Assembly (NCBI RefSeq): GCF_003790525.1
Contig: NZ_CP033635.1
DNA: 64,000 nucleotides
Strand: one strand, 5' to 3'
Source of the DNA: Escherichia coli
GTDB taxonomy: Bacteria > Pseudomonadota > Gammaproteobacteria > Enterobacterales > Enterobacteriaceae
A model generated the notes under the pieces. The model was not told the origin of the DNA, searched no databases, and saw only the letters and a list, made by a program, of their open reading frames with translations. The translations under genes and the position numbers were made by a program. Position 1 is the stretch's first letter. Each line of letters begins with the position of its first letter. Shown here in pieces: positions 2,916 to 53,052 of the stretch.

Positions 2916-3305
2916 ATGCTGGTTTCTTGCGCAATGCGACTTCACTCGGGCGTTTTTCCAGATTATGCTGAAAAATTACCTCAGGAAGAAAAGATGGAAA
3001 AAGAAGATTCATTTCCCCAACGCGTCTGGCAAATCGTCGCCGCTATTCCCGAAGGCTATGTCACCACTTACGGTGATGTGGCGAAACTGGCAGGATCGCC
3101 CCGCGCCGCGCGCCAGGTGGGCGGTGTGTTAAAGCGTCTCCCTGAAGGCAGCACCTTGCCCTGGCACCGGGTGGTTAATCGCCACGGCACAATTTCGCTA
3201 ACCGGACCGGATTTACAGCGTCAACGACAGGCATTACTGGCAGAAGGTGTGATGGTATCGGGAAGCGGGCAAATCGACTTGCAGCGTTATCGCTGGAACT
3301 ACTAA
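2916..3305 (+). CDS. atl: alkyltransferase-like protein Atl (YbaZ)
   Basis: ORF 2895..3305; internal Met gives ~129 aa; MGMT-like C-terminal fold without the active-site Cys motif; synteny. Confidence 0.85.
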   Translation: MLVSCAMRLHSGVFPDYAEKLPQEEKMEKEDSFPQRVWQIVAAIPEGYVTTYGDVAKLAGSPRAARQVGGVLKRLPEGSTLPWHRVVNRHGTISLTGPDLQRQRQALLAEGVMVSGSGQIDLQRYRWNY

Positions 3306-3327
3306 CCCTCTCCGGGCGGAGAGGGTT
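3304..3327. terminator. bidirectional stem-loop between convergent atl and ybaY
   Basis: AACCCTCTCCG-GGC-GGAGAGGGTT perfect hairpin. Confidence 0.7.
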
Positions 3328-3335
3328 AACTGCGC

Positions 3336-3908
3336 TTAATATTGCGTAGGAGCTGGAACTGCCGAAGACGGATTCACCTGAGTTGGTGAAGTCGAAGGTA
3401 CGGTAGTCGTTGCGCCACCGCTGGCCTGAACCGGCACGGCGGTTTGCTGCACCGGCACCAATGTCAGGTCGGCTTTAGTTCCGCCCTGGTTGATCACCGG
3501 CTGAACGGTATCGGTAATAAATACCAGTTTGTCATTCACGGTAATCGCCGCACTCAACAGAATACGCGCATTCGGCTGAACATCTGCCGGGTTAAATGGC
3601 AGAACAAAGCTGAATGGTGACTGTTTACCTTCGGTACGCACCGCTTTCTGCGCCAGCACTTTTGACGGTGCATCGGCTAACGACGCGTCAGAAAGTGTCA
3701 CGGTCAGCACGGCATCAGGCGGCAGTGCGACTTTCTGACGGATCCAAACGGTACCGGAGACATTCGGTTGCTGGATAGCAGGTTGTTGTGTTGCTGAAAT
3801 AGACGTATTTGCAGCCGGTGCTGGCGTCTGAATATCCGCGCTTTTATCTGCGCAAGCCGCCAACGCAATCGCAACCGCTAAACCACTGGCCATGTGCACG
3901 AGTTTCAT
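3336..3908 (-). CDS. ybaY: lipoprotein YbaY
   Basis: 190 aa; signal peptide with lipobox LAACAD; synteny. Confidence 0.85.
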   Translation of the reverse strand: MKLVHMASGLAVAIALAACADKSADIQTPAPAANTSISATQQPAIQQPNVSGTVWIRQKVALPPDAVLTVTLSDASLADAPSKVLAQKAVRTEGKQSPFSFVLPFNPADVQPNARILLSAAITVNDKLVFITDTVQPVINQGGTKADLTLVPVQQTAVPVQASGGATTTVPSTSPTQVNPSSAVPAPTQY

Positions 3909-4125
3909 TCTCTTCTCCTTATTATCAATGCACCAGCGGGCTAACTTTCCTCGCCGGAAGAGTGGTTAACAAAATAGTAACGTCAACAAGTGTGGCACAC
4001 ATCACGCATTTCTGCCTGTAATTAGCCCGTAATTCAGACCATTGCACCCATCGGACCAGTGGCAAATTTGCGTTATACTCAACTCACTTTGGCTTGCTGC
4101 GGCAGCTTTGTTACTGGAGAGTTAT

Positions 4126-4986
4126 ATGAGTCAGGCGCTAAAAAATTTACTGACATTGTTAAATCTGGAAAAAATTGAGGAAGGACTCTTTCGCGGCCAG
4201 AGTGAAGATTTAGGTTTACGCCAGGTGTTTGGCGGCCAGGTCGTGGGTCAGGCCTTGTATGCTGCAAAAGAGACCGTCCCTGAAGAGCGGCTGGTACATT
4301 CGTTTCACAGCTACTTTCTTCGCCCAGGCGATAGTAAGAAACCGATTATTTATGATGTCGAAACGCTGCGTGACGGTAACAGCTTCAGCGCCCGCCGGGT
4401 TGCTGCTATTCAAAACGGCAAACCGATTTTTTATATGACGGCCTCTTTCCAGGCACCAGAAGCGGGTTTCGAACATCAAAAAACAATGCCGTCCGCGCCA
4501 GCGCCTGATGGCCTGCCTTCGGAAACGCAAATCGCCCAATCGCTGGCGCACCTGCTGCCGCCAGTGCTGAAAGATAAATTCATCTGCGATCGTCCGCTTG
4601 AAGTCCGTCCGGTGGAGTTTCATAACCCACTGAAAGGGCACGTCGCAGAACCGCATCGTCAGGTGTGGATCCGCGCAAATGGTAGCGTGCCGGATGATCT
4701 GCGCGTTCATCAGTATCTGCTCGGTTACGCTTCTGATCTTAACTTCCTGCCGGTAGCTCTACAGCCGCACGGCATCGGTTTTCTCGAACCAGGAATTCAG
4801 ATAGCGACCATCGACCATTCCATGTGGTTCCATCGCCCGTTTAATTTGAATGAATGGCTGCTGTATAGCGTGGAGAGCACCTCGGCGTCCAGCGCACGCG
4901 GCTTTGTGCGCGGTGAGTTTTATACTCAGGACGGCGTGCTGGTTGCCTCGACCGTTCAGGAAGGGGTAATGCGTAATCACAATTAA
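4126..4986 (+). CDS. tesB: acyl-CoA thioesterase II
   Basis: ORF 4042..4986; start at MSQALKNLL gives 286 aa; double hot-dog thioesterase. Confidence 0.9.
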
Positions 4987-4987
4987 A

Positions 4988-5026
4988 AAAATAGCCGGAG
5001 GTGAAAACCGTCCGGCTGTTTTTTGC
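4988..5026. terminator. bidirectional rho-independent terminator between tesB and amtB
   Basis: A-run, hairpin AGCCGGA...TCCGGCT, then T-run. Confidence 0.75.
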
Positions 5027-5034
5027 AGTGCTTG

Positions 5035-6321
5035 TTACGCGTTATAGGCATTCTCGCCGTGGCTGTTGACGTCCAGCCCTTCTCGCTCCTGTTCTTCCGG
5101 TACACGCAGACCAACCGTCAGATCCGCCAGTTTGTAGCCAATAAACGCCACCACACCGGACCAGACGATCGTAATGGCGATGCTTTCCAGCTGTACCAGC
5201 AACTGATGGCCCATCGTCACACCTTCAGCGAAGCCCACGCCGCCCAGCGAGCTGGCGGCAAAAATCCCGGTCATGATACAGCCGACAATGCCACAAACGC
5301 CGTGCACACCGAAAACATCGCAGGGATCATCCACCCGCAGCAAACGTTTGAGCATGGTAACGCCCCACAAGCCCGCCAGACCAGCTACCACGCCGATAAT
5401 CAACGCGCCGCCAACCCCAATGTAGCCACAGGCTGGCGTCACGCCGACCAGACCGGCAATCGCGCCAGAACACGCTCCCAGCAGTGAAGGCTTACCGCGC
5501 AGCGCCCATTCACCGAAGATCCAGCCAAGAATTGCTGCCGCCGTTGCGACCACAGTATTCACAAATGCCAGTGCTGCGATTTCATTCGCCGTGCCCGCTG
5601 ACCCGGCGTTAAAGCCAAACCAACCGATATAGAGAATGGCAGTCCCGGTGAAGACCATCGGCAGGTTGTGCGGTTTAAACGCCTCTTTGCCGAAGCCCAC
5701 GCGTTTGCCTATCAGATACGCGCCCACCAGACCGGCGATTGCGGCGTTAATGTGCACCACCGTGCCACCCGCGAAATCCAGTGCACCGTGAGAAGCCAGC
5801 AAACCGCCGCCCCAGACCATATGCGCAATCGGAATGTAGGAGAGCGTCAGCCATACCACCACGAAAATCAACACAGCTGAGAAGCGGATTCGTTCCGCCA
5901 GTGCTCCAACTATCAAGCCTACGGTAATGCAGGCAAACGATCCCTGAAACGCTACGTGGATATACTGATAAATGCTGCCCATCACCGCCGTCAGTTCGAT
6001 GTTTTTCAGCATCAACCAGTTAATGTTGCCGAAGAAGTTGTTTCCCTCACCAAACGCCAGCGAGTAACCGTAAACCACCCAGAGAATACAGACCAGTGCA
6101 AACGTCACCGTCACCTGCGTCAGCATCGACAGCACGTTTTTGCCGCGAATCAACCCACCGTAAAACAGGGCAATCCCCGGAATAGTCATAAACAGCACCA
6201 GCGCAGTACAAATCATCATAAACGCATTGTCGGCTTTATCGGCCACCGCAGGTGCAGCCATTACCAGTCCCGGCAGCATCGCCAGTGAAGCAAGCCCAGT
6301 TTTTATCGTCGCTATCTTCAT
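5035..6321 (-). CDS. amtB: ammonium transporter AmtB
   Basis: 428 aa polytopic membrane protein with signal peptide; glnK-amtB operon arrangement. Confidence 0.95.
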   Translation of the reverse strand: MKIATIKTGLASLAMLPGLVMAAPAVADKADNAFMMICTALVLFMTIPGIALFYGGLIRGKNVLSMLTQVTVTFALVCILWVVYGYSLAFGEGNNFFGNINWLMLKNIELTAVMGSIYQYIHVAFQGSFACITVGLIVGALAERIRFSAVLIFVVVWLTLSYIPIAHMVWGGGLLASHGALDFAGGTVVHINAAIAGLVGAYLIGKRVGFGKEAFKPHNLPMVFTGTAILYIGWFGFNAGSAGTANEIAALAFVNTVVATAAAILGWIFGEWALRGKPSLLGACSGAIAGLVGVTPACGYIGVGGALIIGVVAGLAGLWGVTMLKRLLRVDDPCDVFGVHGVCGIVGCIMTGIFAASSLGGVGFAEGVTMGHQLLVQLESIAITIVWSGVVAFIGYKLADLTVGLRVPEEQEREGLDVNSHGENAYNA

Positions 6322-6350
6322 TTTTCGTTCCTGTTGCTGTGTGCCAGAGA

Positions 6351-6689
6351 TTACAGCGCCGCTTCGTCGGCTTCGCCGGTACGAATACGAATGACGCGTT
6401 GCAATTCAGCGACGAAGATTTTGCCGTCGCCAATTTTTCCGGTGTAAGCCGCCTTACTGACGATATCAATCACTTCATCGAGTTGGTCATCAGCAATCGC
6501 CACATCAATTTTTACTTTTGGCAGGAAGTTGACGCTGTATTCCGCCCCCCGGTACAGCTCGGCATGCCCTTTCTGACGCCCGAAACCTTTCACTTCGGTG
6601 ACGGTCAGGCCCTGAATACCAATGGAAGATAACGCTTCACGAACGTCTTCCAGCTTGAATGGTTTGATTATCACGGTCACCAGCTTCAT
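6351..6689 (-). CDS. glnK: nitrogen regulatory PII protein GlnK
   Basis: ORF 6351..6827; Met at MKLVTVIIKPFKLEDV gives 112 aa PII protein (T-loop GAEYSVNF). Confidence 0.95.
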   Translation of the reverse strand: MKLVTVIIKPFKLEDVREALSSIGIQGLTVTEVKGFGRQKGHAELYRGAEYSVNFLPKVKIDVAIADDQLDEVIDIVSKAAYTGKIGDGKIFVAELQRVIRIRTGEADEAAL

Positions 6690-6740
6690 AGATCCCCTCC
6701 GGTCAGAATTCGGTAATGGTTCTGCTACACGAAGAAGGTA

Positions 6741-6758
6741 TTGCAAGCGGTGTGCCAG
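6741..6758 (-). promoter_or_regulatory. sigma54 (RpoN) promoter of glnK-amtB
   Basis: Minus strand reads CTGGCACACCGCTTGCAA = TGGCAC-N5-TTGCA, ~40-50 nt upstream of the glnK start. Confidence 0.8.
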
Positions 6759-6810
6759 AAATGAAAAACGAGAAAGAGAGCAGGAAGTTAAGAAGATTGA
6801 AAATGAAAAC

Positions 6811-6825
6811 GCACTATGACAGTGC
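6811..6825. promoter_or_regulatory. NtrC-type enhancer site upstream of glnK promoter
   Basis: Inverted repeat GCACtatgacaGTGC upstream of the sigma54 promoter; a second TGCACC-like element at ~6841. Confidence 0.55.
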
Positions 6826-6869
6826 ACAGTGCGTTACATTATTGCACCAACGATGAAATATTGCGCTAT

Positions 6870-10416
<3,547 letters not shown>

Positions 10417-22622: not shown

Positions 22623-22800
22623 TTCCGTCTCCTGGATAAAATTGAAAAAACCTGCTGTACCGATTGTAACCTTATGGACGGATTATCAGCTAGTCCCTGT
22701 GTTATGGGTACGGCATCACCATATTTCAAGCATAACAATCTTTTGTTGTTACGCTAACACCGAAAGAGGCTTTTCGCACGGTTCCATGCAAAATTCATGA

Positions 22801-22840
22801 CAAAAAAAAGCCCACCACCTGGCGGTGACGGGCCTTTGTG
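22801..22840 (-). terminator. rho-independent terminator downstream of tig
   Basis: On minus strand a GC-rich hairpin followed by T8. Confidence 0.7.
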
Positions 22841-32668: not shown

Positions 32669-32980
32669 ATGCCTGGAAAAACAGTCGCTCTACCCGATAT
32701 CGATAAAACGCTGAAAAATGCGCGGGTTGAACTCAAAACCAGCCCCGACGCCAAAAACAAACTTCGTGAAGCTGCGCAAGCCGTTGGGGTAGATTTAAGC
32801 GCTTTTATTTTGAGCGCAGCTATGGAACGCGCCGAAAGTGTGCTTGATAACCAACGTCGCCGTGAGCTTTCGAATCAAAGCTGGGAACTGATGAACCAAC
32901 TCATCGCTGAACCTGCTCAACCGACGCTCGCCCTCAAGGCGTTAATGAAAAGGAAAAACAGCGATGGTCGACAAGCATGA
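32669..32980 (+). CDS. DUF1778 (TacA/AtaR-like, RHH) antitoxin of a GNAT toxin-antitoxin pair
   Basis: ORF 32603..32980; Met MPGKTVALPDID preceded by AAAGAGG Shine-Dalgarno; ~103 aa; 17-bp overlap with downstream GNAT gene; resembles TacA/AtaR-type antitoxins. Confidence 0.75.
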   Translation: MPGKTVALPDIDKTLKNARVELKTSPDAKNKLREAAQAVGVDLSAFILSAAMERAESVLDNQRRRELSNQSWELMNQLIAEPAQPTLALKALMKRKNSDGRQA

Positions 32981-33506
32981 AGAGATTACTCTGCCCATAG
33001 TCCTCTCCTGTAATTATCAGTCTGATATTACTTATCCTGGGCAAAAACAGTTTGATTGCGGTAACCCTGTTATCGATAAATTTGTACGCGCATCGCTAAA
33101 GAAAAGTGTGCGTAATAGCGACTGTGCTGCTAAAGCTCTTATTGACAGACAAAGTGGTGAACTGATTGGCATCTGTACTTTTACGGCATATTCGCTGGAA
33201 AAACAACGCGTTTCTGGCGTCCTTCAGGGTTCACAACCTTCAGAGATTGGTGTTGTCAGATTAGTCATGTTAGGGGTAGCGCGGAAATATCAAAAGCGGG
33301 GCTTTGGTCAGGACCTACTATGTGATTTTTTTGAACATGTAAAAATAATTCACCGGGCATTACCAATTAAAGGGGTTTATCTTGATGCTGACCCTGCCGC
33401 CATTAACTTTTATACTCGCCTCGGCTTTGTTCAGCTTTCAGCGAGGCCCAATGTTTTCGGTGCTGTACCGATGTTTTTAGCGATTCAGCATATTCTCGCG
33501 GCTTAG
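32964..33506 (+). CDS. GNAT-family acetyltransferase toxin (TacT/AtaT/ItaT-like, predicted aminoacyl-tRNA acetylating)
   Basis: 180 aa; N-terminal FDCG motif; acetyl-CoA binding loop RKYQKRGFGQDLL; C-terminal FYTRLGF as in AtaT-like toxins; translationally coupled to the antitoxin. Confidence 0.75.
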   Translation: MVDKHEEITLPIVLSCNYQSDITYPGQKQFDCGNPVIDKFVRASLKKSVRNSDCAAKALIDRQSGELIGICTFTAYSLEKQRVSGVLQGSQPSEIGVVRLVMLGVARKYQKRGFGQDLLCDFFEHVKIIHRALPIKGVYLDADPAAINFYTRLGFVQLSARPNVFGAVPMFLAIQHILAA

Positions 33507-41392: not shown

Positions 41393-43255
<1,863 letters not shown>

Positions 43256-48766: not shown

Positions 48767-49975
48767 TCAGGCTGTCGCCTGAATCATTTCGGTGGGTTCC
48801 TGCTTCAACGGGCGGCCTGACTGCACCATCCCTCCACAGGCAAGAACGGCGTGCCCCGCCGCTAAAATGTTACGAGCGCCATTTACATCGGCGTTCGCTG
48901 TATATCCACATACCTGGCATCTGAATTGACTTTGTGACAGGCGATTTTCTTTCGCTGTATGACCACAGCACGTGCAACGCTGGCTTGTGTACGCTGGCGG
49001 AACAGCAAGCACCTGACCGCCACGCCAGAGCTGCTTGTACTCAAGCTGGCGGCGCATTTCATACCAGCCCTGATCCAGTACCGAACGGTTTAAACCTGAT
49101 TTTGCCCGGACATTGCGTCCCGGCTGGCTGACCGTACCCGCTGCTGACTTTGACATGTTGCTGACCTTCAAATCCTCAATGACTATCATTGCGTGGTTTT
49201 TGCTGACGGTCGTTGTGACTTTGTGAAGGTAGTCCCTGCGGATATTTGCGATACGGGAATGCAGTCGCTGTATTTTGCGTTTCTGCTTCTGCCAGTTATT
49301 GCTGAATTCGACCTTGCGGCTTAACTGTCGCTGAAGTCTCGCCAGCGTCTTCTGGTTTTTCTGAAAACTGTTTACAGGCTCAAAGACTGTGCCATCTGAC
49401 AGCGTGGCGAGTTTAGCCACGCCAGCATCCAGCCCGACCATTGATGCTGAAGGGTGAACCGGAGTGGATACTTCACTTTCTGTCTGAATACTGATGTACC
49501 ACTTACCGCAGGACTGGCTGACAGTGACATTTTTCACAACACCCGTGACCTGGCGGCTGTTCCGGTAGCGCATCCAGCCCAGTTTCGGCAGAAAAATACG
49601 GCTGTTTTCCTGATCGAGCTTAACGCCCTGCGGGTAGCGGAATGCATCATTCTGTCCCCGCTTTTTGAATCGGGGAAAAGCAGCCCGCTTCTGGAAGAAG
49701 TTTTTGTAAGCCCGCTCAAGGTCTTTCAGTGACTGTTGCAATGGCTGTGAGGGCGAATCTTTAAGCCATTGCGTTCCAGTGGCGTTTTTCCACTCAACCA
49801 GCCAGGAAGCCATTTTCCCGTAAGGGATGTATTTATTACCGGCCTCATGATTCTCATTCTGAAGCGCCAGAGCACGATTGAAAACGAAACGACATGCGCC
49901 TGCGAAGCGCCTCATTTCATGCTCCTGTTGACCACCGGGTCTTAACTGGAATTTAAATGCCTGTAGTCGTTTCAC
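48767..49975 (-). CDS. tnpB: IS605-family TnpB (OrfB; RuvC-like RNA-guided endonuclease family)
   Basis: 402 aa uninterrupted; N-terminal [13 protein letters not shown]...RFVFN; RuvC-I LDAGV, RuvC-II IEDL, zinc finger CTCCGH...CQVCG, Ruv[12 protein letters not shown]. Confidence 0.85.
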
Positions 49976-49997
49976 AGGTCAAATTATATTTTGGTCT

Positions 49998-50470
49998 GTG
50001 AAAAAAGAAACCGATATCCGGCGTGGAAGGCATTGTGTTTTCCTGATGCATGTTCACCTGGTCTTTGTCCCAAATACCGACGCCAGATTTTTGACCATGA
50101 CGCGACAGAAAAACTACGCACTTACTTTTCAAATGTATGTGCTGATTTTGAAGCTGAACGGGTTGAAATGGATGGCGAACCAGATCACGTCCATTTGTTA
50201 ATTAACTATCCTCCCAAACTGGCGATATCCAGTCTGGTAAACAGCCTCAAAGGTGTATCGGGTAGGTGACTGCGACGAGATCGACCAGATATTGCAGTCA
50301 GGTATTACTACAAAGGCGTTTTGTGGAGTCCTGGCTATTTTGCCAGTAGCTGCGGAGGTGCGCCAATATCCGTCATCCGCCAATACATTGAACAACAGCA
50401 AACACCTGGTCAGGTGGAAAACCGCGCCTTATATCCCCGCCCTGAAGGACGGGGTTTTACGGCGCACCGG
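49998..50470 (+). pseudogene. tnpA: IS200-type Y1 (HUH) transposase TnpA, disrupted by multiple frameshifts
   Basis: TnpA-like segments spread over three frames: HVHLVFVP / PKYRRQIF...HVHLLINYPPKLAISSLVNSLKG / WSPGYFASSCGGAPISVIRQYIEQQ. Confidence 0.7.
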
Positions 50471-52535: not shown

Positions 52536-52817
52536 TTACCAGTGACGGCGAGGTTCCATCAGCTGATGAAGAATGCGCGCAATGAGAATGTCATCGACTC
52601 TTATAACGTAATAAACAGTGTGAAACCTAAATGCGATCTTCTTTACCTCTGGAATCGCATCATAGTCTTGCCCTATCTCGGGCATTTGAGAGAGTGTATC
52701 CAGAAAAATGCCGAGAGAGTCGGTATAGCGATCCGCCTGCTCCTCACCAAACTTTCCCAGCGTGTAGTCATAGATCCCTCTGAAATCTTCAACAGCTTTT
52801 CCGCTAAGCTTATACAC
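52536..52817 (-). CDS. ParE/RelE-superfamily toxin of a type II toxin-antitoxin pair
   Basis: ORF 52536..52850; likely GTG start whose GTGTATAA overlaps the antitoxin stop, giving ~93 aa; ParE-like core. Confidence 0.7.
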   Translation of the reverse strand: MYKLSGKAVEDFRGIYDYTLGKFGEEQADRYTDSLGIFLDTLSQMPEIGQDYDAIPEVKKIAFRFHTVYYVIRVDDILIARILHQLMEPRRHW

Positions 52818-53052
52818 GATGTTTTTGCTTCCTTTCTGCTGCGATATCACGAAGCGTCATCGAACTTTCACCGCTCTCAAGACCTTCAATAACAGCATTT
52901 CTGACAGCTTCATCCCTGGATTCTTGTTGTTCCAATAGACGAAGCGCTGAACGCATTACTTCACTGGCCGAGCCATAACGACCAGACTGGACCATCCGTG
53001 TAATAAAACTATCTAATTGTTCGCCAACGCTTACTGAGGTAATTTTGCGCAT
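52810..53052 (-). CDS. ParD-family (RHH/CopG-like) antitoxin
   Basis: 80 aa; ...SGRYGSASEVMRSALRLLEQQE...GLESGES... typical of ParD/COG3609 antitoxins; directly upstream of and overlapping the toxin. Confidence 0.75.
   Translation of the reverse strand: MRKITSVSVGEQLDSFITRMVQSGRYGSASEVMRSALRLLEQQESRDEAVRNAVIEGLESGESSMTLRDIAAERKQKHRV

Follow-up and report, generated by a model that had tools for sequence, protein, structure and literature searches.

The question raised by this locus is whether the short region between mdlB and glnK carries the nitrogen-regulated control of glnK-amtB that has been described for Escherichia coli K-12, and what further functions the same DNA may have. The first part can be answered with high confidence: the element upstream of glnK is the control region that E. 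coli natively uses for glnK-amtB, a sigma-54 promoter dependent on an enhancer. The presence of the motif, its uniqueness, its identity to K-12 and its conservation across species come from the present analysis; sigma-54 and NtrC occupancy and the dependence on rpoN and glnG come from the literature on K-12 and Salmonella, which are the source of all the functional data used here, none being from this strain. The second part concerns features that lie over and beside the promoter, namely a pair of NtrC-type sites, a terminator-like hairpin and a CT-rich stretch, and here the answers are more tentative.

The mdlB-glnK region and its sigma-54 promoter

The window, by which is meant the whole 64-kb stretch of DNA that was analysed, is part of an E. 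coli chromosome and is near-identical to that of strain SMS-3-5; positions 3300-10300 are identical to SMS-3-5 and positions 14001-64000 differ at 2 of 50,000 bases. On the minus strand the order is mdlA, mdlB, a 180-bp intergenic region, glnK and amtB. The ABC transporter gene mdlB (6870..8651, minus strand, stop codon TGA at 6872..6870) is co-oriented with and upstream of glnK, which encodes a PII-family nitrogen regulator (6351..6689, minus strand, from the open reading frame list and the RefSeq annotation of the identical SMS-3-5 sequence). The ammonium transporter gene amtB (5035..6321, minus strand, from the same list and annotation) lies 29 nt 3' of glnK within the same operon, and a Shine-Dalgarno sequence for glnK, GGAGGGG, can be read off the sequence at 6694..6700 on the minus strand. 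Of 5426 complete E. coli genomes searched with the 180-bp intergenic region, 5423 carry it once, at 95% identity or more.

In a 201-bp alignment the mdlB-glnK intergenic region is identical to that of K-12 MG1655 except for two SNPs, at 6841 and 6796, both of which fall outside the core motifs (the -24/-12 element and NtrC site 1, described below). At each of them the window has T where K-12 has A, the first being inside a weak second NtrC-type site and the second in the spacer between enhancer and promoter. As A is also found at 6841 in E. albertii, Citrobacter and Enterobacter, the T of the window looks derived. Both SNPs are neutral-looking, and a functional difference is not expected.

An earlier note on this DNA had reported a TGGCAC-N5-TTGCA promoter on the minus strand, and this is found at 6757..6742 as the only exact match on both strands of the 64 kb; shuffles that preserve dinucleotides gave an expectation of 0.09, with at least one match in 9 of 100. 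The -24/-12 element, TGGCAC-ACCGC-TTGCA (TGGCACACCGCTTGCA, 6742..6757, minus strand), has TGGCAC at 6757..6752 and TTGCA at 6746..6742, is preceded by TTTC and followed by ATACCTTCTTCGTG, and is a perfect match to TGGCAC-N5-TTGCW, with the GG (6756/6755) and GC (6744/6743) doublets exactly 10 bp apart. It is intergenic, on the same strand as glnK, and begins 68 nt before the glnK ATG. With one mismatch allowed there is one match more, which brings the number found to 2 against 2.2 expected; this additional match (TGGCACGTTGTTTGAA, 42109-42124, plus strand) lies in the sense orientation inside dxs, is without the -12 GC and was rejected as being at chance level.

Judged by where the -12 GC lies and by the rule of PMC4591121, which places the start 19 bp downstream of the motif centre and 42 bp from glnK, transcription is predicted to start at 6731 +/- 2 nt on the minus strand, giving a 5' UTR of 42 nt. 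The interval 6735-6850 that had been proposed for the regulatory region does hold the promoter, the dyad and a second NtrC-type site that had gone unmentioned, but it just misses this predicted start. No experimentally mapped glnK 5' end or NtrC footprint was found in the accessible literature. A promoter scan of 6300-7000 found no sigma-70-like promoter, and a second promoter for glnK was rejected for this reason; a search of 5000-9000 at a permissive threshold found no Rfam RNA family.

Bonocora et al. assigned the K-12 17-mer CTGGCACACCGCTTGCA to sigma-54 ChIP-seq peak OS03, with a FAT score of 18 and a predicted start 42 bp from glnK, and recorded that EcoCyc in 2015 classed the glnK promoter as predicted and not experimentally confirmed (PMC4591121). 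Shimada et al. give the same 17-mer and report gSELEX peaks of both the RpoN holoenzyme and NtrC in the mdlB>glnK spacer (PMC8743547). In Zhao et al. the promoter is given as -68..-51 relative to the start codon, exactly the position of the element in the window, and glnK was down 18.8-fold in an rpoN deletion (PMC2831329). Brown et al. found an NtrC ChIP-seq peak of 39.7-fold at glnK-amtB, and in a glnG deletion they could not readily detect glnK mRNA (PMC4066584). By coordinate conversion the interval of this peak (471741-471821) corresponds to about 6690-6770 of the window, with its centre ~90 bp downstream of NtrC site 1, an offset that is within the resolution of ChIP-seq and is not a precise confirmation of the site. 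Furthermore, the NtrC-specific activity at the glnK promoter has been reported to be 400-fold higher under ammonium starvation, the promoter has been noted as a perfect match to the -24/-12 consensus (PMC7045595), and the glnK-amtB promoter of Salmonella is bound by sigma-54 and gave a reporter activity of 1.1 Miller units, rising to 1778 when nitrogen was limiting (PMC3844500). Together with the K-12-identical element, the published binding of sigma-54 and NtrC and the dependence on rpoN and glnG uphold the claim that glnK-amtB is under nitrogen-regulated control.

NtrC-type sites and their conservation in Enterobacterales

A GCAC...GTGC dyad had also been claimed upstream of the promoter, and it is present as GCAC-N7-GTGC at 6811-6825. 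The bare pattern is not above chance, with 2 found in the window against 1.89 expected, and the dyad alone is therefore not convincing. The fuller pattern TGCACY-N5-RGTGCR has its sole match without mismatch in the window at 6810-6826, and from the counts of the sigma-54 motif and of the bare dyad in the window the chance that a dyad would lie no more than ~100 bp upstream of the one sigma-54 element was estimated at roughly 0.003. The stronger candidate, site 1 (TGCACTGTCATAGTGCG, 6810..6826, minus strand), is centred at 6818, or -87 from the predicted start, and agrees with the NtrC box TGCACCAnnnTGGTGCA, a consensus taken from PMC8743547, at 10 of 14 specified positions, with the GCAC and GTGC cores both intact. 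A literal sequence search of the literature found the promoter string printed in two papers and the dyad string TGCACTGTCATAGTGCG in none of the papers searched.

A weaker candidate, site 2 (TGCAATAATGTAACGCA, 6830..6846, minus strand), is centred at 6838, or -107, some two helical turns (20 bp) further upstream than site 1; it agrees with the NtrC consensus at 9 of 14 positions and contains the SNP at 6841. A possible third NtrC-like 17-mer, AGCGCCTGAATAGCGCA at 6878..6862, also agrees at 9 of 14 positions, but it overlaps the mdlB stop codon, is constrained by coding and is not conserved in E. albertii.

The conservation of these elements was followed in a sample that began with a scan for GlnK, taking one genome per species, which gave 79 loci; the 15 Enterobacterales-like loci were used, and the loci of Pseudomonas and other distant groups, most of which are without the strict promoter pattern within 400 bp, were left out. 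All 15 loci have TGGCAY-N5-YTGCW at 59-104 nt before the glnK ATG, and 14 of them have NGCAC-N7-GTGCG upstream of glnK, with centres from -87 to -142. The gene upstream is mdlB in all 14 site-bearing loci, the exception being an Orbaceae genome in which the upstream gene is different. The half-sites are fixed as (T/C)GCAC...(G/A)GTGCG whilst the central bases vary freely and the flanks cannot be aligned between genera; fixed half-sites around a free spacer are the pattern expected of a protein-binding site, and this one fits the NtrC box. Furthermore, in seven genera (Escherichia, Citrobacter, Enterobacter, Superficieibacter, Yersinia, Rahnella and Acerihabitans) a TGCA[A/C]-N7-NCGCA element precedes site 1 by exactly 20 bp, and it is this fixed offset that makes the enhancer probably a tandem one. 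Natural NtrC "tandems" are mentioned by Levy et al. as well. The single NtrC site of the earlier note thus stands as regards its fit to the NtrC box and its conservation in Enterobacterales, and needs amending as regards number, there being on the evidence of conserved spacing probably two sites and not one.

The distance between enhancer and promoter is not constant. Escherichia has the centre of site 1 at -87 from the predicted start, Citrobacter at -97 and Superficieibacter at -118; one Klebsiella and Photorhabdus have it at -130/-131, and three Enterobacter, two Yersinia, Acerihabitans and Rahnella at -140 to -142. Helical phase is preserved across these five classes of spacing: at 10.5 bp per turn the resultant length R is 0.85 (P ~0.016 against random spacing), and for assumed repeats of 10.3-11.0 bp P ranges from 0.003 to 0.06. 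In the window the spacer from site 1 to the -24 element (6758..6809, minus strand) is 52 bp long and 85% pyrimidine on the sense strand, and a search of it for WATCAANNNNTTR with up to one mismatch found no IHF-like site. Spacing by near-integral turns is what face-of-helix-dependent looping without IHF would predict.

Possible insulation of glnK from mdlAB read-through

Two features of the region may bear on transcripts that enter it from mdlAB. The first is a CT-rich motif, CCTTCTTC (6731..6738, minus strand, -7..+1), a candidate anti-Shine-Dalgarno "insulator". In the work of Levy et al. a 50-bp glnKp fragment was shown to silence a downstream reporter when it is transcribed from upstream; the silencing depends on orientation and not on rpoN, and most of it was traced to a 7-nt CT block with its centre at -4, which acts as an anti-Shine-Dalgarno sequence and the mutation of which relieves the effect (bioRxiv 10.1101/086108). 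In the window this block is CCTTCTT at 6738..6732 (-7..-1). In predicted folds of the sigma-54 transcript (+1 = 6731) the glnK Shine-Dalgarno sequence has a probability of being unpaired of 0.37-0.40, against 0.006-0.01 in read-through RNA, where it pairs with 6737..6731. Only 0.5% of random upstream 60-mers gave a value as low as the native one, and mutation of CCTTCTT raised it to 0.54; as 15.5% of the shuffles that preserve composition match the native sequence in this, the sequestering effect is largely one of CT-richness. Across species the read-through value is below the sigma-54 value in 15 of 16 sequences, with a marked difference only in Escherichia, Enterobacter Ag1 and Photorhabdus. 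By these folds the published mechanism is predicted to extend to the native glnK leader. The sequence is the same as the founding example of Levy et al., with the CT block centred at -4 and, in the native leader, predicted to pair with GGAGGGG; it differs in that their constructs had a synthetic ribosome-binding site, mCherry or GST reporters and the CT block within 25 nt of the Shine-Dalgarno sequence, whereas the native motif is ~31 nt away and the effect described here is a predicted one.

The second feature is a terminator-like hairpin, AACGCACTGTG-CACTGT-CATAGTGCGTT (6835..6808, minus strand), found in a terminator scan, with a stem of 11 bp and a loop of 6 nt, and followed by the T-tract TTTTCATTTT (6809..6800, minus strand, same scan). 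It begins 35 nt past the mdlB stop codon and overlaps both candidate NtrC sites. The RNA fold has a predicted energy of -16.4 kcal/mol (z = -4.44), and none of 200 shuffles was as stable. Across nine Enterobacteriaceae 91.9% of the cells of the stem alignment are paired, and one stem position is compensatory, being C-G in five species and U-A in four and never broken, which may represent a single evolutionary event. All Enterobacteriaceae examined have the T-tract, with 6-8 T in the first 8 positions. The Term-seq supplements searched make no mention of mdlB or glnK.

It could be argued that the T-rich tract and the pyrimidine-rich spacer have to do with DNA and not with RNA, serving to bend the DNA for a short loop formed without IHF and neither to terminate transcription nor to insulate by anti-Shine-Dalgarno pairing. 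The composition of the 52-bp spacer, which has several T-runs and no IHF-like site, would be in keeping with this, as would the conserved helical phase, which implies that looping geometry matters, and the A5 run that Yersinia has where the T-tract would be. However, no obvious phasing is seen in the T-runs, the corresponding position in Rahnella, Acerihabitans and Photorhabdus is without an A- or a T-tract, and for the CT motif an activity at the level of RNA, dependent on orientation and independent of rpoN, is already published (bioRxiv 10.1101/086108). We regard such a role for bending as improbable; it bears in any case only on the added layers and is compatible with the identification of the region as a sigma-54 promoter with an NtrC enhancer.

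Another proposal would be that the dyad is only the stem of the mdlAB terminator, and that NtrC binds elsewhere or acts from solution. The stable hairpin followed by TTTTCATTTT so soon after the mdlB stop codon, the pairing of the stem with its compensatory change and the chance frequency of the bare dyad could all be cited in its favour. Against this, NGCAC-N7-GTGCG is retained by Yersinia, Rahnella, Acerihabitans and Photorhabdus, which have no T-tract after it; in the first three of these genera the dyad is roughly 130-180 nt from the mdlB stop codon (it is ~15 nt from it in Photorhabdus). The conserved half-sites with their free spacer match the NtrC box, the spacing to the promoter keeps a helical phase that would be irrelevant to a terminator, and NtrC binds the mdlB-glnK spacer both in vivo and in vitro (PMC4066584, PMC8743547). 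It would therefore seem very unlikely that the dyad is a terminator and nothing else. We conclude that the primary and ancestral function of the dyad is the binding of NtrC, and in Enterobacteriaceae the same DNA plausibly doubles as a terminator of mdlB. This dual role in Enterobacteriaceae is the preferred reading, and it qualifies the earlier description of the dyad as an NtrC site, since the dyad also overlaps a terminator-like hairpin after mdlB.

Least credible of all is the suggestion that the sigma-54 motif is bound but unproductive, with glnK-amtB expressed by read-through from mdlAB or by a sigma-70 promoter. In its favour, the 135 sites found for sigma-54 by ChIP-seq in K-12 are for the most part not classical promoters (PMC4591121), mdlB runs in the same direction as glnK and stops only 180 nt short of it, and no mapped start for glnK was found in the accessible literature. 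The expression data already contradict it, through the 18.8-fold drop of glnK without rpoN (PMC2831329), the glnK mRNA that is not readily detected without glnG (PMC4066584) and the ~1600-fold nitrogen induction of the Salmonella promoter fragment alone (PMC3844500), to which may be added the negative result of the sigma-70 promoter scan, the translational silencing of read-through RNA (shown in reporters, bioRxiv 10.1101/086108, and predicted for the native transcript) and the terminator-like hairpin that stands between mdlB and glnK.

Proposed mode of action and comparison with known promoters

Taken with the published data, these features can be put together as follows. Sigma-54 RNA polymerase would bind at 6757..6742 and form a closed complex that is unable to initiate alone. 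Under nitrogen limitation NtrB would phosphorylate NtrC, and NtrC~P would assemble on the tandem sites at about -87 (strong) and about -107 (weak), the bases contacted and the part played by site 2 being putative. From there it would loop over the short pyrimidine-rich spacer to the polymerase, with a geometry suggested by the conserved phase, and ATP hydrolysis would open the promoter. Transcription would then proceed from near 6731, the predicted start, into a 42-nt leader, glnK and amtB, and the ribosome-binding site would be accessible. Two added layers probably prevent expression of the operon by read-through from mdlAB: the hairpin and T-tract that lie over the NtrC sites may terminate mdlB transcripts, and the CT-rich stretch would pair with the glnK ribosome-binding site only in RNA initiated upstream, an effect published for reporters and predicted for the native transcript.

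This can be taken a step further. The glnK enhancer of Enterobacteriaceae may be bifunctional, the same 36 bp acting as NtrC-binding DNA and, as RNA, as the mdlAB terminator; with the CT-rich anti-Shine-Dalgarno stretch it would form a two-layer insulator, and the indels by which the enhancer went from about -141, as in most Enterobacterales, to -87 in Escherichia would have come in near-integral helical turns. We put this forward tentatively, as a possibility that has somewhat less than an even chance of being right. The overlap of enhancer and hairpin, the native anti-Shine-Dalgarno pairing and the phase-preserving repositioning are incremental and unproven, and a bifunctional enhancer and terminator combined with an anti-Shine-Dalgarno sequence as a double insulator would, if true, be a modest refinement. 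These side observations may be of interest to those who use glnKp as a synthetic-biology part and to students of operon insulation.

With regard to K-12, the nearest known system, the -24/-12 element, site 1, the 5' UTR and the Shine-Dalgarno sequence are the same base for base and the spacer is the same except at 6796; the promoter is at -68..-51 from the ATG in both, and the gene order mdlB-glnK-amtB is shared. As the glnKp of the window is that of K-12 with two neutral-looking SNPs, it is already known. The element being base-for-base K-12 glnKp, the earlier judgement that the regulatory layer is intact, and is a positive control and not a novelty, is borne out. The nitrogen-stress control of glnK-amtB is among the best-studied of sigma-54/NtrC promoters, and its being intact in an SMS-3-5-like strain allows it to serve as a positive control and calibration point. 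The promoter of STM0462 in Salmonella Typhimurium is an orthologous sigma-54 promoter, TGGCACATCCTTTGCAAT, which is likewise bound by sigma-54 and strongly induced by nitrogen limitation, and differs in the sequence of its N5 spacer.

A more distant comparison can be made with glnAp2 of the glnALG operon, which is also a sigma-54 promoter served by NtrC~P on tandem upstream sites and for which IHF is not needed. The NtrC sites of glnAp2 are centred at -108 and -140 (PMC1865078), whereas the candidate sites of glnKp are nearer (-87 and -107) and are 20 bp apart instead of 32 bp; in addition, no sigma-70 promoter overlaps the enhancer at glnKp. The literature refers to glnKp as "simpler" and as a reporter of NtrC~P, and it has been proposed to fire only above a threshold level of NtrC. 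In one respect the likeness to glnAp2 is closer outside Escherichia, since site 1 of most other Enterobacterales lies at about -141, as does site 1 of glnAp2.

An enhancer overlapping a terminator-like hairpin

In the same region as the stronger NtrC dyad upstream of glnK (site 1) there is a terminator-like hairpin with a T-tract, found on the minus strand at 6800-6835, with a folding energy of -16.4 kcal/mol (z = -4.44); it begins 35 nt past the mdlB stop, and its T-tract reads TTTTCATTTT. Both hairpin and T-tract have been kept in the Enterobacteriaceae, with one base pair being compensatory, and the T-tract is missing from Yersinia, Rahnella, Acerihabitans and Photorhabdus. The stretch 6800-6835 may act as both enhancer and terminator.

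The mdlB-glnK intergenic region differs from that of K-12 at only two positions, 6841 and 6796. At 6841, within the weak NtrC site 2, the window has a T where K-12 and related genera have an A, and at 6796, in the spacer immediately after the T-tract, it again has a T where K-12 has an A.

Spacing and number of NtrC sites

Comparison of window 6810-6826 with the glnK loci L003-L014, L016 and L019 revealed five classes of spacing between site 1 and the promoter within the Enterobacterales, at -87, -97, -118, ~-130 and ~-141, and the gaps between these classes are close to integral helical turns (P ~0.016). The shortest loop among the Enterobacterales loci compared is that of Escherichia; most genera compared have the ~-141 spacing, which is similar to that of site 1 at glnAp2, the glnALG promoter of E. 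coli.

At loci L004-L007 and L010-L013, from species with the long architecture, site 1 is preceded by a third conserved NtrC-like element, for example TGCACCAAAATCAGGCG, 61-62 bp farther upstream. This third element is absent from E. coli, where the corresponding position falls within mdlB. There is also a weak NtrC-like candidate, AGCGCCTGAATAGCGCA, at 6878..6862, which overlaps the mdlB stop.

Other features of the window

The window has a second published sigma-54 ChIP-seq site besides the one at glnK: OS02 (TTGTCATGAATTTTGCA), which lies upstream of clpP in K-12 and is found unchanged at 22787-22803 on the minus strand; it departs from consensus at -24, with GT and not GG. Three strain-variable insertions, with approximate coordinates transferred from the SMS-3-5 annotation, are unrelated to the glnK promoter finding: an IS200/IS605 tnpA pseudogene with a TnpB/InsQ gene, interrupting a DUF3251 gene (~48767-50407), a ParD/ParE toxin-antitoxin pair in the secF-yajD interval (~52536-53052) and a GNAT/DUF1778 pair close to cyoE (~32669-33506).

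The CT-rich motif and the glnK Shine-Dalgarno

Folding predicts base pairing between the CT-rich motif CCTTCTTC (6731-6738, minus strand, -7 to +1) and GGAGGGG, the glnK Shine-Dalgarno (6694-6700, minus strand), only in RNAs begun upstream of the sigma-54 start; the predicted probability of the Shine-Dalgarno being unpaired is ~0.4 in the sigma-54 transcript compared with 0.006 in RNAs started upstream. This predicted pairing agrees with the published "insulator" effect of glnKp, which was shown in reporter constructs, whereas here it concerns the native glnK leader.
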